From a phage, in the NCBI GenBank assembly GCA_012416205.1, contig GCA_012416205.1_3033.2: a stretch of 64,000 bases of DNA, one strand, 5' to 3'. The position numbers and the translations under genes are program-made. Of the stretch, positions 21,247-28,085 are shown piece after piece. Under the pieces are notes generated by a model. The model saw only the letters and a program-made list of their open reading frames with translations. It was not told the DNA's origin and made no database searches. How positions within the stretch are numbered: position 1 is the first letter of the stretch; each line of letters starts with the position of its first letter.

Positions 21247-23340
21247 TTATCCTTGAACGAACTTGTAAGGCATGTTTGTAATATCTATGCAAGACGCAAT
21301 AATTCCAAGAGATGATTCTACTTTCTGTTTAACATTTGATGAAACAAATGATGCAAAGTCAACTCTGTCTTCTATTTCAATATCACCTGTCATTGCAACC
21401 AATTCACCAGTTTCCATTAAATGGTCTCCGTCATAGATTACCGATTCGGTGAGTTCTTCGGTGGTCATAACTTCAGCTTGAATGAGTTTTGTATTATTAG
21501 ACGTGGTTCCGTCATTATTAGAAGCATCAGTTATTTTATTAACTTTGACCATCAATCCGCGCGGTAGAATAACTTCAGCTTCTGTTGCTATTCCGAGATT
21601 TCCTGGATATACAACATTAACTTTATGAGCTCCATCAATTGCCCATCCTATTTGAACTTTAACGTATTCAGGATTTTCTTTATACGCTCTTATTTCGTTT
21701 GGATTAATAGTTATTCCTTCTTCATTTTTATCAACTGTTAATTCATTGCGAGCTTCTGGTTCTAAAAGACCAATACCAGCATGTGTAATTCCAAAACGTC
21801 CAAAAATGATAGGAGTTAAAGAAGTAGATACAAAATTTCTGAAGTAGAACACTTTATTTTTAACTAGTGCTTCGTATATAGGAGCAGTCATACTTTGAGC
21901 ACGATAAACTGTGATGCCTTCCGGTATGCGGTCACCATTTTCAAAAGCTGAATCTAAGTTATTTATAGCAGATTCAATTTCTTTTTCACTCATTACATCA
22001 TATCGTTCTGGATTGTAACGACCTAAAAGAAGATTATTGATGTCAGTATATCCTGAACCGCAATATTCTCTAATGCCACGCTTTTGTGATGGAGTATATT
22101 TAGAACCATCGCGGGCAATAGTAATATCAATCATTGGACCAGCACCAATTCCAGAAAAACTGTAAATCATTCGTTTGAGGAATTTAGTTTTTGCTGCGTT
22201 CCAGGAATTTTTAGTTATTTCTTCCCAGACTTCATCTGGTTGTCCTTTACGATTTTTATTATGATTAGCAAGCCATTTATCTTTATAATCTTCAAAGAAT
22301 TGATTTACAGCTGCTGCGTATTTCTCTAAACATTTTATTGAAGTAGTTGGTTCATTTTTAATTGCATTAAAAATTACTTCTTTAATTTTTTCTGAAACTT
22401 CACCGACTTGACTCATTGGAAAGAATTTATAATCATAGTGAAGTTCATCTGCCGTTCCTTCAGCAATAATTTTTGCTGCCTTTGTTTTAGAAGCTAATGA
22501 ATTAATTCCAATTTTCATTTCTTCTGCTTCGGGAATTAAAGGTGCAGTAGCTGGTTTATTAAAATTAGCTGCTGTAGATTCATACTTCTGGAATAATTCA
22601 CTTTCAAATCTAGAAGATTCCAATGACTGACTTTGTGCAATTGCTCTACGGGAAATTTTAACTTTAACGATTACAGCTTGGTCAGAACGTTTATCATTTT
22701 CTTGCGCAATAGATGCTGCAATTGCCTCATTTTTAGTTACTTGGGCTCCAGTATCTTTATTGATATAAACATCACCGACTTTCGATTCAACTTTAGTAAA
22801 GAGCTCGGTACTAATTTCCGGAACTCCTGGAATGTCTTCTAGTGATACATTTTTGCGATGTATAAGAATATATGCATACTTTTTATCATAATCCCAGAGT
22901 TCCTTAAGAAGGACGTATCTGCCACCTGAACGACTACGGATAAGTCTATCAGCAATAACTTGAATTTGTCGAGCTTGACCAGCGGTTTTAGACTTAAGAA
23001 TACGAAGCATACAAGCATCAATTTTATACTGACGCATTGTTTGCATTGCAACAGTAAAAACTGAATTGATATAATTAATTGGGCTTGGACCAAGACCTTT
23101 TAATTTAGCAATTGAACCTTTAGCAGTTAATGTAAAAGGAACAATATGCATCATTTTATCGCCCATCTTTAAATCGCGATTAGTATCACCTCCAGATGTA
23201 TAGGTACATAAACGAAAGCCTGGCTGTTCAATTGCATCATCAACGTGAACTGAAAAAATTTGCGGTATTTTCTTCTTTGGATTTAAGTTTGTAATCGGAA
23301 GAGTAGTATCTTCGTCAAATAATTCTGTAATAAGTTCCAT
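21247..23340 (-). CDS. alt: RNA polymerase ADP-ribosyltransferase Alt
   Basis: 697 aa from the second Met (better RBS spacing); recognisable Alt N-terminus MELITELFDEDTT; ART motifs YRAQ, FVSTSL, EAEVILPRG. Confidence 0.9.
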   Translation of the reverse strand: MELITELFDEDTTLPITNLNPKKKIPQIFSVHVDDAIEQPGFRLCTYTSGGDTNRDLKMGDKMMHIVPFTLTAKGSIAKLKGLGPSPINYINSVFTVAMQTMRQYKIDACMLRILKSKTAGQARQIQVIADRLIRSRSGGRYVLLKELWDYDKKYAYILIHRKNVSLEDIPGVPEISTELFTKVESKVGDVYINKDTGAQVTKNEAIAASIAQENDKRSDQAVIVKVKISRRAIAQSQSLESSRFESELFQKYESTAANFNKPATAPLIPEAEEMKIGINSLASKTKAAKIIAEGTADELHYDYKFFPMSQVGEVSEKIKEVIFNAIKNEPTTSIKCLEKYAAAVNQFFEDYKDKWLANHNKNRKGQPDEVWEEITKNSWNAAKTKFLKRMIYSFSGIGAGPMIDITIARDGSKYTPSQKRGIREYCGSGYTDINNLLLGRYNPERYDVMSEKEIESAINNLDSAFENGDRIPEGITVYRAQSMTAPIYEALVKNKVFYFRNFVSTSLTPIIFGRFGITHAGIGLLEPEARNELTVDKNEEGITINPNEIRAYKENPEYVKVQIGWAIDGAHKVNVVYPGNLGIATEAEVILPRGLMVKVNKITDASNNDGTTSNNTKLIQAEVMTTEELTESVIYDGDHLMETGELVAMTGDIEIEDRVDFASFVSSNVKQKVESSLGIIASCIDITNMPYKFVQG

Positions 23341-23363
23341 CATAGCCTCTCTAGTGTTTATTC

Positions 23364-23392: not shown

Positions 23393-23581
23393 TTAGTAAT
23401 CTAGTGGTAAGAGAGTACGATATATTTCAAACTTTGGTCCTTTTTCATAGGCATCAAATGTTTCTGTAAATTTATTATAAGCGTATGCATCTACAAATTC
23501 GAGAATGACTTGTGATACAGAAGTAGAAACATCTCCGCCTTCTTTTTGAGCAATGACAATTGTTTCTAAGTAAGCTTTCAT
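23393..23581 (-). CDS. Hypothetical 62-aa protein between alt and gene 30
   Basis: ORF overlapping the gene 30 stop by 4 bp. Confidence 0.5.
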   Translation of the reverse strand: MKAYLETIVIAQKEGGDVSTSVSQVILEFVDAYAYNKFTETFDAYEKGPKFEIYRTLLPLDY

Positions 23582-25041
23582 AAACCAGTTACCTCATGAA
23601 AATCACCAAATACATCCTCGAATGTATTAGCTTTAGTTTTATCTTCACGTAAACGAATCGCAATCGGAAGAAATAATTTAACGTAATCAGTGCGGCCATC
23701 AGATTTTAACCAACCGTTGCATTCGCACTCTAGAATTTTTCCAATATAATAATTTTGGTTTTCCATAATGCGAGTACGGTCAAGTTCATGTGATTTTACG
23801 CCGGCTTTGTCTTTTAAGCCTGAACCAGCATTTACTTTAATTTTTCCACACTCTGACTCAAGAATAAATCCACCTGCTTTAGTAGGGTCTTTACGGTGAG
23901 GATAAATTCCTACAATTTTTAAATCAACATCAATTACTTCTTTAAATTTATAGAGATTTTTTGAACGGGCATTTTCCCATAACCCATCAACGTTTTTGAG
24001 AATAATACCTTCAAGACCTTGATCAATATACTTTTTGTAAATTACCTTAGCTTCATCTAGGTTATTTACTACCTGGTTTTCAATTAAAATTACTTTATCA
24101 TAGCCTGATGTCATTTGTTCTAGTTTAGAAAAACGTACATCATACTTTAAACGAAATGCAGGAAGACCATATATTTCTACTAATGGAACATAATCCCAGA
24201 CCTGAAACTTCATGCATTGTGCTTCTTTTTCGGAAATGGTTCCCTTTAAAGATTTATTAGCGATTCCATTAGAAGCAGTACGTGATTCAGCTACTTCGAC
24301 GAATTCTTTAGCTTTACTAATTTCAGGATAAGCATTAAAAAGAAAATCTAGGCCTTCTGGCTCCTTTTTAACTTGCTCATGGTATACCAATTCGCCATCA
24401 ATTAACACACCTTCTGGATGAATCTGGCGGGCTTCAGCGGTCATTTTAATTAACTCTTCCTTAAGAAGATCTAATCCTAGATATTCATTACCAGCTCGTG
24501 ATAAAAGACGAACATCATCTAATTCATCACCTCTGACTTCAGCAAAGCACCGAGCTCCATCAGCTTTTAACTGGGCAAAAGCTGGAAATTTGATATTCTT
24601 ATTAATGCCTTTTTCATCATAAGAACTTGCAAGCATTTGAGGTTGTTCAGGAATTAAACCTGGCCAAACTTTGTTTGCAATAGATACTGAAGCACCGCAT
24701 TCAAGGTCTCGCATCATCACTCGACGCAAAACTTCAACATCATCTTTTTTACCATCGGTGATATATCCAATTAATTCCTCAATTGCCGCATTTCCAGTCA
24801 ATTTCCGAGTAGCTAACGTGAATTCAATGAAGTCAAGCATATCGGTAAGAGTCAACATTCCAAAACTCTGGGTAGCAATACCCGGTTTAGGCCATTTCTT
24901 GATATAATACTGTAACCCACGAGAATAAGTCAGACGATATACTCGTTTAAGCAATTCATTATCTTTGTTCTTTTCAAGAATTGCTTGCTTCTGCTTAGTT
25001 GAACCAATAGATGCTATTTCGTTCAGAATTTTAAGAATCAT
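23578..25041 (-). CDS. 30: ATP-dependent DNA ligase gp30
   Basis: 487 aa (T4 DNA ligase length); adenylation motif KADGAR. Confidence 0.93.
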   Translation of the reverse strand: MILKILNEIASIGSTKQKQAILEKNKDNELLKRVYRLTYSRGLQYYIKKWPKPGIATQSFGMLTLTDMLDFIEFTLATRKLTGNAAIEELIGYITDGKKDDVEVLRRVMMRDLECGASVSIANKVWPGLIPEQPQMLASSYDEKGINKNIKFPAFAQLKADGARCFAEVRGDELDDVRLLSRAGNEYLGLDLLKEELIKMTAEARQIHPEGVLIDGELVYHEQVKKEPEGLDFLFNAYPEISKAKEFVEVAESRTASNGIANKSLKGTISEKEAQCMKFQVWDYVPLVEIYGLPAFRLKYDVRFSKLEQMTSGYDKVILIENQVVNNLDEAKVIYKKYIDQGLEGIILKNVDGLWENARSKNLYKFKEVIDVDLKIVGIYPHRKDPTKAGGFILESECGKIKVNAGSGLKDKAGVKSHELDRTRIMENQNYYIGKILECECNGWLKSDGRTDYVKLFLPIAIRLREDKTKANTFEDVFGDFHEVTGL

Positions 25042-25307
25042 TGTTCATCCTTTAGAGTTTGGTTTACAGCTCTATTATAAATCAATTCATCATTAAGCTC
25101 AGTCAAAGACCTGTGGTACGTGGTTCTAACTTTATTTCCTTGCATCCAGTGCTTGACGTAAATGAAACCTTGCTCTACACATTTTTTAAAAATTCGTTCG
25201 TCTTTTTGAGCTCGGAATTCTGGATTGCATCTAAAAAATTGATTTACGTGACCGTAATCACGTGTAGTATTACCTTCATTTTCATAAATAGTATGAACAA
25301 CAAACAT
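25038..25307 (-). CDS. Hypothetical protein (T4 30.1 position)
   Basis: 89 aa ORF, 4-bp overlap with gene 30. Confidence 0.5.
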   Translation of the reverse strand: MFVVHTIYENEGNTTRDYGHVNQFFRCNPEFRAQKDERIFKKCVEQGFIYVKHWMQGNKVRTTYHRSLTELNDELIYNRAVNQTLKDEQ

Positions 25308-26143
25308 TAAAATGCTCCTTGAAAAATATTATCACCACTAGTAGGTCTATTATACAAATACTCTATGCCACCAGGTTTAATATAGTTCCATGTCTGAAAC
25401 GGATGTGTCTGATATGGATGATATGGATTATAAGGATTAAATCCAGGAGTTCTCCAGGTAGTGTTCCAAGGAAAAGAATCGTTTTTGATCATCTTCTCAA
25501 TTACATCTTTTATAACTTTTTCACTATCAAAACTTTCTTTATTTTCCTTCGATGGAAAAAGCTTATTCTCGACATCATTCCATGTATAAACTCGCTGTGC
25601 AGTTTTTGGAATACTGTCACGCTCCCCTCGAGCCATCCAATAAACAGGAACATTTAATATTTCACTCGCGTGATCGCAGTGGTGAGCGAGATCGTCAATA
25701 TAACAAATTACGTTATATTTCTCTTTTGCCTTTTTGAACAACTCTTCTTTTGAAGAATCATGACCACACATCAATACTTCTGAGAAGGCACCAGGAAAAA
25801 GAGCATTCAAATTAAATTGACGATTCAGCAGAGCGTCAATAGAATCACCCAATGCTGTAACAGCTACAAAATTATAATCTTCTTTTAATTTGTTAATTAC
25901 ACACAGGGCATCTTTATATGGAGACAAGTAACGAATAAAATCTGAACGATTGTATTTTTCAATTAACTTGACGCCAAGTTCTTCATCACAATTAAAAAGT
26001 TTACCTGGAGAAATAAATTTCTCATCTTGGATCATTTTTAAAATATGTTCCAACGGAAGATTATATTTCTGGGCAAAATAAGGAAGTCCTGATTGCCAGC
26101 TTAAACATACTCCATCAATATCAGTTAAAATAGTAGGCTTCAT
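25307..26143 (-). CDS. HAD-like hydrolase (T4 30.2 position)
   Basis: 278 aa; N-terminal LTDIDGV (HAD motif I DxDG[VT]) and downstream YIDD. Confidence 0.6.
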   Translation of the reverse strand: MKPTILTDIDGVCLSWQSGLPYFAQKYNLPLEHILKMIQDEKFISPGKLFNCDEELGVKLIEKYNRSDFIRYLSPYKDALCVINKLKEDYNFVAVTALGDSIDALLNRQFNLNALFPGAFSEVLMCGHDSSKEELFKKAKEKYNVICYIDDLAHHCDHASEILNVPVYWMARGERDSIPKTAQRVYTWNDVENKLFPSKENKESFDSEKVIKDVIEKMIKNDSFPWNTTWRTPGFNPYNPYHPYQTHPFQTWNYIKPGGIEYLYNRPTSGDNIFQGAF

Positions 26144-26604
26144 AGAGAGTCTCTTAATAGGTTTAACACATCAATAAATTCAGCTTCGGTTAGTATTGTA
26201 TCATCTTTTGTTAGACCACTAGCCATGCTGTGCTTCAAAACTTTTCCTTTCGAGGCTAGTAATGCATCACGAAAGCCCTTGTTTTGAATCGCTGCTTCAA
26301 AATATGCATTTGTGTATAATTCTTTCCACGCCGGGGAGTATCTTGAAAACGGAACTCCGAGCCAGAAGAGGGTCCCACGGTCCTGAGCTCTTGCATAAGA
26401 CCTTCCAGCTTGCTGTGCGGCAAGCCCGGATAACCCAAATATACGACGTTGTTGTTCAACATTTTTCACCTTACACCCTTGGAGGAATCCTTCGAGACCT
26501 CCAAATTGAATACCATCCATGACGAAAGGCCATTGGGCGAAATTACTTAATGCACATGATGGCCACCTAAAATTGCTTCTAATCTCTAACTCAGACATTT
26601 TCAA
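26140..26604 (-). CDS. NADAR/YbiA-like (DUF1768) domain protein (T4 30.3 position)
   Basis: 154 aa; LSNFAQWPF...DGIQFGGLEGFLQGCKV matches the SNF...P...EH.FQ..K core pattern of YbiA/NADAR proteins. Confidence 0.7.
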   Translation of the reverse strand: MKMSELEIRSNFRWPSCALSNFAQWPFVMDGIQFGGLEGFLQGCKVKNVEQQRRIFGLSGLAAQQAGRSYARAQDRGTLFWLGVPFSRYSPAWKELYTNAYFEAAIQNKGFRDALLASKGKVLKHSMASGLTKDDTILTEAEFIDVLNLLRDSL

Positions 26605-26797
26605 TGCTTATAATTTCAACATCAGCCCAATGACCATAGCAAGGAAGACGAAATTCAACTGGCCAGTTAGGGTCCTTTTCTAATATAATAGACTTAACTT
26701 GTGGTTCTTCATGTTCATCAGTATATGGATTTTTATCTGTTACTTTATATGTGACCTTAATGTACTGAATTCCAAAAATCTTATTAATTATATTCAT
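26591..26797 (-). CDS. Hypothetical protein (30.x cluster)
   Basis: 68 aa ORF, tightly packed in the 30.x operon. Confidence 0.45.
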   Translation of the reverse strand: MNIINKIFGIQYIKVTYKVTDKNPYTDEHEEPQVKSIILEKDPNWPVEFRLPCYGHWADVEIISIENV

Positions 26798-26991
26798 ACT
26801 AATTCCTTTAATCCGTAAATAGGAGATAATTCATCACCCATGCGAAGGTCTTCATTTCCATCTACCCAGGAAACAATATAAGCCTCTTTTATTTGAATAC
26901 CACTCCATTTAAATGGAGGTAGAACCTTAGAAATTAATCCAGGTATACCAATTCCCTTTAATTCAACAGTTTGACCTAAAAAGAATTTCAT
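26794..26991 (-). CDS. Hypothetical protein (30.x cluster)
   Basis: 65 aa ORF, 4-bp overlaps with neighbours. Confidence 0.45.
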   Translation of the reverse strand: MKFFLGQTVELKGIGIPGLISKVLPPFKWSGIQIKEAYIVSWVDGNEDLRMGDELSPIYGLKELV

Positions 26992-27278
26992 TAGAACCTC
27001 ATCTGAAAACCGTGCGATTTAACATTACCGCCGCCAATATCAGAAATGTTAATTTCACGCGCAATTGAAGGGTCAATGTCAATTTCGCGATTGAGTTTAG
27101 TGATAGCTAAAGTATCGCGCCCATTTACAGTACGAAACTCTAAAGGACAAACCACATCAACGTAGTTTTTAATCGATTCGCTAGTAGGTTGCAAATGTGC
27201 AGGAAGGTCTTTAGGCGCCTTTGAGAAAACTACTTCGCAGAAGTTTTTACGGGTATCAAAATAAGTAGTCATAAACAT
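26991..27278 (-). CDS. Hypothetical protein (30.x cluster)
   Basis: Start moved to the internal ATG with a GAGGA RBS; the longer track ORF would run through the hairpin at 27297-27310. Confidence 0.5.
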   Translation of the reverse strand: MFMTTYFDTRKNFCEVVFSKAPKDLPAHLQPTSESIKNYVDVVCPLEFRTVNGRDTLAITKLNREIDIDPSIAREINISDIGGGNVKSHGFQMRF

Positions 27279-27296
27279 AATATTTTCCTCAGTAAG

Positions 27297-27310
27297 GGGC
27301 CGAAGCCCCC
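27297..27310 (-). terminator. Hairpin GGGGC-CGAA-GCCCC
   Basis: Perfect 5-bp GC stem between two 30.x ORFs. Confidence 0.4.
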
Positions 27311-27319
27311 TCATTTATT

Positions 27320-27697
27320 TTAAATATCAAATTCATTAAGAACTACATCAAAGATTGCTTCAAGATGCTCAGGTTTAGCTCTGTTACTCAGAATATGACG
27401 AATCCAAGTTTTAACCAAAAGCTTGCGATTAGCACCATTCCAGCAAGGATGAGTCCCTAAATCACGTTGACGAAAATCATCATCCAGAGCGATTTTGAAG
27501 TTTGAACCTTCCATTGTGATTGAAACCGTGATTCCATTTTCAAATCGCATATAAACGTAATTAGGAGTCATATACTGTTCAATTTCGCATACTGATCCAT
27601 TTTGATGTTTCCAAAGGCAAATAGTATCAATAGAACCTGCAATACCATTAGAAACATATTTACGTTCAAAGTTGATGTAGTTCATTTTATTCTCCAA
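27320..27697 (-). CDS. Hypothetical protein (30.x cluster)
   Basis: 125 aa ORF. Confidence 0.5.
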   Translation of the reverse strand: MENKMNYINFERKYVSNGIAGSIDTICLWKHQNGSVCEIEQYMTPNYVYMRFENGITVSITMEGSNFKIALDDDFRQRDLGTHPCWNGANRKLLVKTWIRHILSNRAKPEHLEAIFDVVLNEFDI

Positions 27698-27752
27698 GAT
27701 GTTTAATTGCGGTACAGGTATATAATATCATATCCTGTACCAAAGTAAACAA

Positions 27753-28085
27753 TTATTTTACTACTTTCCAATGCTGCATGTCAAGTTTACCAACTTTTTT
27801 CATCTTCTCAATTAAGCGTTCGGCACGTTGGCGAGCTGTAACATAATACCATTCACCTAATTCATTTTGTTCAATTTTTCCAACGATTACTGTATTCAAT
27901 TCATAAATCCAACCAGTAAAGAAATTATGAACTTGAATTGTAAAGGTGAAATCTGTTCCCATACCTTCTGTTGTTTCTACTTCAATAATATCACCTTCAA
28001 CTGCCATTAAGAACCACATAGTTTCATCATATTTACCATTGAAGCATTTAGTTTTAACTGCAGCGTTCAGATTAATCGTTTTCAT
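27753..28085 (-). CDS. Hypothetical protein (30.x cluster)
   Basis: 110 aa ORF with an early-promoter-like element upstream. Confidence 0.5.
   Translation of the reverse strand: MKTINLNAAVKTKCFNGKYDETMWFLMAVEGDIIEVETTEGMGTDFTFTIQVHNFFTGWIYELNTVIVGKIEQNELGEWYYVTARQRAERLIEKMKKVGKLDMQHWKVVK

Follow-up and report, generated by a model that had tools for sequence, protein, structure and literature searches.

In the 64,000-nucleotide stretch of phage DNA analyzed here (the window; NCBI GenBank assembly GCA_012416205.1, contig GCA_012416205.1_3033.2), positions 25038-28085 carry what is very probably a T4-type cluster of accessory genes in which gene 30.3 is adfN, encoding a NADAR-fold protein that counters the host DarTG1 defence, and the adjoining gene 30.2 encodes an independent HAD-superfamily phosphohydrolase. 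The fold of 30.3, its key residues and its near-identity to T4 AdfN are established from the window itself, and the activity and the phenotype have been published for the T4 protein. Since both the NADAR identity of 30.3 and its role against defensive ADP-ribosylation were reported in 2024-2025, the window adds another allele, and the novelty implied in a preliminary description of this DNA is absent.

By sequence comparison, the window belongs to Tequatrovirus and the region corresponds to the 30.1-30.8 accessory gene cluster of T4. Matches to the 3,048-bp region occur in 736 phage records, of which 468 contain a single match covering at least 80% of the query, with a best DNA identity of 98.7%; nearly every record comes from a Tequatrovirus or T-even phage infecting Escherichia, Shigella or Yersinia. 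Gene-by-gene comparison with the annotated T4 genome gives proteins 97-99% identical to gp30.1-gp30.8. The label ‘30.x accessory cluster’ given in the preliminary description was therefore right, and all eight minus-strand open reading frames (ORFs) that it located are present. Transcription runs along the minus strand, with rIII/30.9 preceding the cluster and DNA ligase and alt following it.

Gene 30.3 (26140-26598, minus strand) encodes a protein of 152 amino acids, of which 150 are identical to those of T4 AdfN in an end-to-end alignment (98.7%). The window allele resembles T4 AdfN in gene position, full length, C-terminal helix and the residues E36, K43 and H123, and differs from it by the substitutions Q113L and I125M, the residue at 125 in the window being the family consensus. 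The ORF extends to 26604; translation probably begins at the ATG at 26598, the start annotated in T4 and in phage JLBYU31, and not at the TTG at 26604. The NADAR motif of ORF 26140-26604 reads ALSNFAQWPFVMDGIQFGGLEGFLQGCKV, and the signature LSNFAQWPF...GLEGFLQGCKV noted earlier is present in it. The Pfam profile PF08010 (Phage_30_3) matches the protein with 235 bits, compared with a gathering cut-off of 36, and over 138 of 138 profile positions. E36, K43 and H123 (T4 numbering) are invariant in the family, as seen in a profile of ten homologues (alignment A1). An exhaustive search with the 30.3 profile yields 1,456 clusters at 50% identity.

The AlphaFold2 model of 30.3 (predicted local distance difference test, pLDDT, 84.7; predicted template modelling score, pTM, 0.83) contains the C-terminal helix 139-152, which is missing in the inactive RB69 allele. 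Its top three Foldseek matches are all NADARs, namely E. coli YbiA (2b3w; E 1.1e-4, template modelling (TM) score 0.65), followed by 8bau, a Phytophthora NADAR with ADP-ribose, and 8bat, the Geobacter lovleyi NADAR (E about 0.017 and TM scores of 0.58-0.62), all other matches having E >1. When PDB sequences are compared with the A1 profile, the best match is again YbiA (E 0.048), over the motif SNFA.WP..DG...E.f.Q..K. Profiles are required for such relationships, as single-sequence PDB searches with gp30.2 and with gp30.3 return nothing significant. The model TIGR02464 (riboflavin-intermediate N-glycosidase) reaches 30.3 with E 0.17 and 12 bits, below its cut-off of 73.7. The earlier assignment of 30.3 as a YbiA-like NADAR is borne out by the structural and profile matches, and the models of 30.2 and 30.3 fall into the expected folds, HAD and NADAR, rather than into unrelated ones.

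E. coli YbiA, a riboflavin-intermediate N-glycosidase with a housekeeping role, is the best fold and sequence match to 30.3 and shares the motif given above, but its identity to 30.3 is 18%, and its last strand carries Glu where 30.3 has His. In 30.3 the invariant His123, in a KHS strand, takes the place of the third acidic residue of the NADAR active site, which is Glu in the YbiA type and Asp in the DarG1 type. NADARs of the DarG1 type (8bat) and the eukaryotic NADAR (8bau) have the same fold and the same catalytic Glu/Lys as phage 30.3, and perform the same reaction on guanine-linked ADP-ribose that has been shown for the T4 protein. In contrast to DarG1, the phage gene is an orphan without an adjacent DarT, it lacks the N-terminal extension, and its product does not neutralize DarT1 in uninfected cells. 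No DarT-like ORF adjoins 30.3 in the window: its neighbours are 30.4 and 30.2, and the nearest ADP-ribosyltransferase gene is the unrelated alt, ~3 kb away.

The function of AdfN has been documented in several studies. NADARs were described as expressed early alongside ADP-ribosyltransferases in T4-like phages (Iyer et al. 2022, PMC9503650). T4 gp30.3 was then named ‘phage NADAR’, with His in place of the catalytic Glu as the hallmark of the phage gp30.3 subgroup; it hydrolyses guanine-ADP-ribose and not thymidine-ADP-ribose, and gave no rescue of DarT1 toxicity in cells (Toxins 2024, PMC11125620). Gene 30.3 was renamed adfN, for anti-DarT factor NADAR, by Johannesman et al. (Nat Commun 2025, PMC11825919), who found AdfN(T4) to be necessary and sufficient for the resistance of T-even phages to DarTG1. 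In the same work, purified AdfN(T4) strips ADP-ribose from DarT1-modified DNA, and E36A, K43A and an RB69-type C-terminal truncation each impair AdfN(T4), whose full activity seems to need a further T-even factor (PMC11825919). The protein rescues non-T-even phages just partly. Transposon insertions in T4 gene 30.3 are lost on DarTG1, with a log2 fold change (log2FC) of -7.25 (bioRxiv 10.1101/2025.11.20.689424, Data S6).

In the mechanism proposed for AdfN, a stand-alone N-glycosidase of NADAR fold would use the Glu36/Lys43 pair, with His123 in place of Glu/Asp, to cleave guanine-N2-linked ADP-ribose, added by the host toxin DarT1, off phage DNA. Removal of the ADP-ribose would allow phage replication to proceed in DarTG1-carrying hosts. 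For the window allele, 98.7% identity to the T4 protein argues for the same DarTG1 counter-defence function. The suggestion that a phage NADAR counters an ADP-ribosylating host defence thus agrees with the published DarTG1 data on the T4 protein; the evidence here lends no support to the further suggestion that the protein acts against Thoeris or other NAD-depleting systems.

The family of 30.3 shows a varied domain context. Five of its members (P0123, P0125, P0126, P0136 and P0214) have ~290 amino acids and two tandem Phage_30_3 (NADAR) domains. The PHROG 652 profile has 296 positions, of which the T4-type protein covers just 126-272, which is consistent with the duplicated form being common. 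In other organisms, NADARs of the gp30.3 type are fused to a GDSL lipase, to the prolipoprotein diacylglyceryl transferase Lgt, to an FtsW/RodA-like membrane protein (a weak, sub-threshold match) or to BspA-type leucine-rich repeats (P0153, P0198, P0233, P0190/P0228). ASCH matches occur in three members of alignment A3 together with the gp30.3-type NADAR. Given these varied fusion partners, the 30.3 family extends far outside T4-like phages and DNA repair.

Gene 30.2 (25307-26143, minus strand) encodes a protein of 278 amino acids, 97.5% identical to its T4 counterpart and composed of a HAD-superfamily phosphatase core and a tail. The N-terminus reads MKPTILTDIDGV, in which, counting Met1, DIDGV occupies residues 8-12; the HAD motif had thus been correctly recognized, although the ORF does not start with it as was stated. 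Among 28 homologues with 35-73% identity, D8, D10 and K132 are invariant, T96 and D150-D151 nearly invariant, and W16 and several residues of cap and core are also invariant or nearly so. All four HAD motifs are found: DxDx[TV] (I), S/T at T96 (II), K at K132 (III) and DD at D150-D151 (IV). The structural model is very confident over residues 1-190. It places the HAD core in residues 1-~200, with a helical cap (~15-64) between motifs I and II, and a predicted disordered tail rich in P, N, Y and W at ~223-278. Foldseek gives 90 matches with E <=0.001, and all 50 that are listed are HAD-fold proteins, led by the deoxyribonucleotidase-like 3bwv, 2jao, 2i7d and 4yih; TM scores and root-mean-square deviations are also best for these four. 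The description of 30.2 as a HAD-like hydrolase stands on both motifs and fold.

Searches with 30.2 find no Pfam or NCBIfam model above threshold, and the Pfam family NT5C (PF06941) does not match. A profile search of 5.8 billion proteins gives 159 matches, and the 120 listed are all T4-like phage proteins without Pfam domains; as these include no cellular relatives, no functional transfer is possible. A few homologues are labelled at source as HAD hydrolase, FMN phosphatase YigB or 5'(3')-deoxyribonucleotidase, and a HAD annotation of 30.2 already exists in some GenBank records. In the literature on gene 30.2, no study devoted to it was found, just a mention in a figure legend of PMC11825919. 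The C-terminal ~75 amino acids (25307-25480) vary in length among homologues, and many of these have in common a short motif close to the end, G-[IT]-E-Y-L-x-x-[QR]-P-T, a possible docking peptide.

By analogy with other HAD enzymes, gp30.2 would catalyze Mg2+-dependent phospho-aspartyl transfer, with Asp8 as nucleophile, Asp10 as acid/base and D150/D151 binding Mg2+. In view of the helical cap, the substrate is expected to be small and phosphorylated, a (deoxy)nucleoside monophosphate or a related phosphosugar being the best guess available and a weak one.

The independence of gp30.2 from adfN is supported by genetics and by genomic context. When T4 transposon mutants are challenged with DarTG1, insertions in 30.2 prove neutral (log2FC -0.12, adjusted p 1.0, 71 TA sites; bioRxiv 10.1101/2025.11.20.689424, Data S6). 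Among 80 loci with a relative of 30.2, a 30.3 relative lies upstream in the same orientation in 37, and 43 have no 30.3 nearby (co-occurrence being counted throughout within ±4 kb of the gene). A large T4-like group has the order 30.8-30.7-(30.6)-30.5-30.2-30.1-ligase, in which 30.5 abuts 30.2, and 30.4 and 30.3 are jointly absent. The 4-bp overlap between 30.3 and 30.2 (ATGA, 26140-26143) that had been pointed out is real, but every junction of the cluster overlaps or abuts, including 30.4/30.3 (8 nt), 30.2/30.1 (1 nt) and 30.1/30 (4 nt), so that it says nothing specific about coupling and was discounted as evidence. As insertions in 30.2 are not depleted on DarTG1 and 30.2 persists without 30.3, the candidate role of a required AdfN co-factor was rejected: in T4, the AdfN/DarTG1 mechanism does not include 30.2. 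The view of the HAD and NADAR proteins as a pair is not supported by these results, and the earlier interpretation as a whole is partly supported.

The stable genomic partner of 30.2 is DNA ligase, not adfN. Of the 30 loci inspected in detail (L043-L102), distant phages included, 28 have the order 30.2-(30.1)-ligase and two have 30.2 alone; among the 28 ligase-linked loci, the ligase gene flanks 30.2 from the other side in one and is ~1.5 kb distant in another. This linkage may hint at a role of 30.2 in DNA metabolism or ligation.

Several explanations of gp30.2 and gp30.3 differ from the one preferred here. It is possible, if doubtful, that gp30.2 is a 5'-nucleotidase acting on deoxynucleoside monophosphates (dNMPs), tuning the dNMP pool after host DNA breakdown, and that it may weaken nucleotide-based immunity, in the way that T5 Dmp counters Kongming. 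This would fit the best PDB match of the 30.2 family profile, mouse cytosolic 5'(3')-deoxyribonucleotidase (cdN; E 0.043, over motif I and the cap), the leading Foldseek matches given above and the source labels of some homologues as 5'(3')-deoxyribonucleotidase. The enzymes cdN and mdN and the bacterial 3bwv resemble gp30.2 in HAD core, helical cap, a motif I of the type D-x-D-G-V and an aromatic residue at +8, and the invariant W16 aligns to the aromatic residue of DMDGVLADF in cdN. T5 Dmp offers a precedent, being an early phage enzyme with a HAD motif I (DLDGT) that hydrolyses nucleotide phosphomonoesters and is active against Kongming. Its kinship with gp30.2 was rejected, as no specific homology is detectable between the two (hhalign probability 1.4%); T5 Dmp itself matches no Pfam family. 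The failure of the NT5C model to match gp30.2 and the lack of a fitness effect of 30.2 in LB or M9 also count against a nucleotidase. T4 salvages dNMPs, so that a broad dNMPase would be counter-productive.

The ligase linkage raises the question of end healing, in which gp30.2 would act as a 3'-phosphatase together with the adjacent DNA ligase, with T4 Pnkp and its HAD phosphatase domain as the analogue. The linkage is the most conserved one of 30.2 across distant T4-like phages, and weak matches exist to the polynucleotide kinase family PHROG 415 (E 0.0038) and to Pfam HAD_PNKP (E 0.18). Such a role is nevertheless quite unlikely. A cap in HAD enzymes usually goes with small-molecule substrates and Pnkp-type phosphatases are capless, whereas in gp30.2 a helical cap separates motif I from motif II; furthermore, adjacency is a weak argument where gene order is generally conserved, as in T4-like genomes.

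An obligate HAD-NADAR pathway has also been considered, in which the NADAR frees ADP-ribose or a phosphoribosyl adduct and gp30.2 processes the product within the same counter-defence. Besides the adjacency of 30.2 and 30.3, their ATGA overlap and the 37 of 80 loci with 30.3 upstream, this explanation draws on natural fusions that keep the gene order, with a 30.3-type NADAR at the N-terminus and an NT5C-type HAD domain at the C-terminus (P0133, P0140, L024:3914-4966 and L025:3430-4437). One NADAR-NT5C fusion is located at L110:6001-6993. The NT5C domain is Pfam-significant in three of the fusions (P0133, L024 and L025) and faint in P0140. The fusions P0133, L024 and L025 lie in ADP-ribose-processing islands. 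The islands of L110 and L025 contain an ADP-ribosylglycohydrolase and an M54-like peptidase and, in one or the other, a second NADAR, RtcB, DSP/PTP-NADK phosphatases, LMW-PTP and PP2C; an M54-like peptidase is the sole neighbour identified for the L024 fusion, and the neighbours of P0140 are unrelated. In some fusions the HAD nucleophile or the Asp at +2 is replaced (VDMGGV in L024, VAMDAL in P0140). Coupling of ADP-ribose glycohydrolases to HAD 5'-nucleotidases has also been noted (Iyer et al. 2022, PMC9503650).

The homology that would tie these fusions to 30.2 is marginal. A profile-profile link exists between the fused HAD domain and 30.2 (hhalign E 4.8e-5, probability 68%), but none of the fused HAD domains is detected in a hidden Markov model search with 30.2, and direct homology of the two families was rejected for these reasons. 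With 30.2 neutral on DarTG1, lacking a nearby 30.3 in 43 of 80 loci and abutted by 30.5 in many phages, and with tight overlaps universal in the cluster, the obligate pathway is very unlikely and, for DarTG1, largely refuted. In a looser reading, gp30.2 may cooperate with a NADAR on another ADP-ribose-derived substrate, as the NADAR-NT5C fusions suggest. Finally, the notion that gp30.3 serves, like YbiA, as a housekeeping N-glycosidase whose substrates are riboflavin-pathway intermediates and not ADP-ribosylated DNA, to which YbiA as top sequence and fold match and the weak TIGR02464 match would lend themselves, can be dismissed as highly improbable in view of His123 in place of the YbiA-type Glu (PMC11125620), of the published biochemical and genetic data for DNA de-ADP-ribosylation and DarTG1 counter-defence, and of a published phylogeny that puts the T4 group nearest the DarG1-type NADARs (PMC11825919).

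Some observations weigh against the interpretation of 30.3 as adfN beside an independent HAD phosphohydrolase. The Pfam NADAR family (PF08719) does not match 30.3 of the window at E up to 1, and NADAR membership therefore rests on fold and transitive matches: PF08719 matches at E <0.001 in 9 of 47 longer family members (best E 1.2e-6), the six matching relatives with printed scores all lying under the 35.1-bit cut-off. The function of the window proteins is transferred from T4. As AdfN(T4) does not rescue DarT1 toxicity in uninfected cells, its substrate or context may be narrower than, or different from, plain DNA carrying guanine-ADP-ribose. Lastly, cooperation of some 30.3-type NADARs with a HAD nucleotidase-like domain is evident from the NADAR-NT5C fusions.

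A lead on the context in which AdfN acts comes from gene 30.4 (26591-26797, minus strand; 68 amino acids, PHROG 2042, 97.1% identity to T4). Just two T4 genes are significantly conditional on DarTG1, namely 30.3 and 30.4, the latter at log2FC -1.79 with an adjusted p of 0.014 (bioRxiv 10.1101/2025.11.20.689424, Data S6). Homologues of 30.4 are confined to loci with 30.3 (29 of 29, from about 15 distinct contigs), always immediately upstream, in contrast to 30.1, 30.5, 30.7 and 30.8, which also occur in 16-22 loci without 30.3. The transposon effect, the 8-nt overlap with the start of adfN and the co-inheritance with 30.3 together make gp30.4 a helper candidate. In a tentative proposal, considered unlikely so far, 30.4 and 30.3 would form a two-gene counter-defence cassette in which gp30.4 is the factor, specific to T-even phages, without which AdfN(T4) is not fully active. 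A simpler alternative is a polar effect of the insertions on the translationally coupled adfN. RB69 carries 30.4, and ectopic AdfN(T4) fully works in RB69. If true, the helper role of gp30.4 would explain both the failure of AdfN(T4) in uninfected E. coli and the partial rescue of non-T-even phages.

The remaining genes, all on the minus strand, follow the T4 arrangement. Gene alt, identified by its counterpart in the annotated T4 genome, lies at 21247-23343, alt.1 at 23393-23581 (90.3% identity to T4) and gene 30, encoding the ATP-dependent DNA ligase, at 23578-25041 (98.8% identity to T4 gp30). Gene 30.1 (25038-25307) encodes 89 amino acids with a DUF3045 domain (Pfam PF11243, E 2.9e-64; 98.9% identity to T4). 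Gene 30.5 (26794-26991) encodes 65 amino acids (PHROG 1690; 98.5%), and 30.6, in an ORF that runs up to 27314, encodes 95 amino acids from the T4-equivalent start at 27278 (26991-27278; 98.9%), PHROG 2153 matching residues 13-107 of the long ORF. Gene 30.7, with its T4-equivalent start at 27685 (27320-27685), encodes 121 amino acids (Pfam PF06919, E 9e-53; 99.2%), and 30.8 (27753-28085) encodes 110 (Pfam PF06019, E 2.4e-59; 99.1%).

The flanking small ORFs had been described as free of recognizable motifs, which is contradicted by the Pfam families of 30.7, 30.8 and 30.1 and by the assignment of all six small genes (30.1 and 30.4-30.8) to PHROG families, albeit of unknown function. An NCBIfam scan of the eight cluster proteins gives no match above threshold. 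In T4 transposon sequencing, 30.1-30.9 are all non-essential and show no LB-versus-M9 phenotype (bioRxiv 10.1101/2025.11.20.689424); the six small genes are conserved, dispensable accessory genes of T4-like phages. In L001 (OK272473.1) and other GenBank records, 30.1, 30.4 and 30.7 are labelled as baseplate hub or tail tube cap proteins, and several records label 31.1 and 31.2 as tail fibre proteins. These structural labels look like errors of annotation transfer, because neither the reference annotation of T4 nor the Pfam families agree with them.

Inside 30.3, an ORF in another frame (26256-26462, minus strand; 68 amino acids) is the equivalent of T4 30.3', which has 75 amino acids. It is 84% identical to the T4 version while the overlapping 30.3 frame is 98.7% identical, and 30.3' is probably neither under protein-coding constraint nor a conserved gene. 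Upstream of 30.8, also on the minus strand, a consensus scan identifies a terminator-like hairpin (28192-28171), GC-rich, followed by a T-run and located just downstream of 30.9, and then a promoter-like site (28141-28113). The segment 28113-28192 is a plausible transcription boundary of the block from 30.8 to 30. Promoter-like sites in the region are not above shuffled expectation in the consensus scan (16 found, 14.5 expected); the evidence for the boundary is therefore weak, and the operon structure is not established.

The biologically important element of this region is an orphan, antitoxin-like phage NADAR that would erase DarT1 ADP-ribosylation from phage DNA. Beyond adfN, a substrate for gp30.2 or a role for gp30.4 would annotate genes in hundreds of sequenced T4-like and therapeutic phages.

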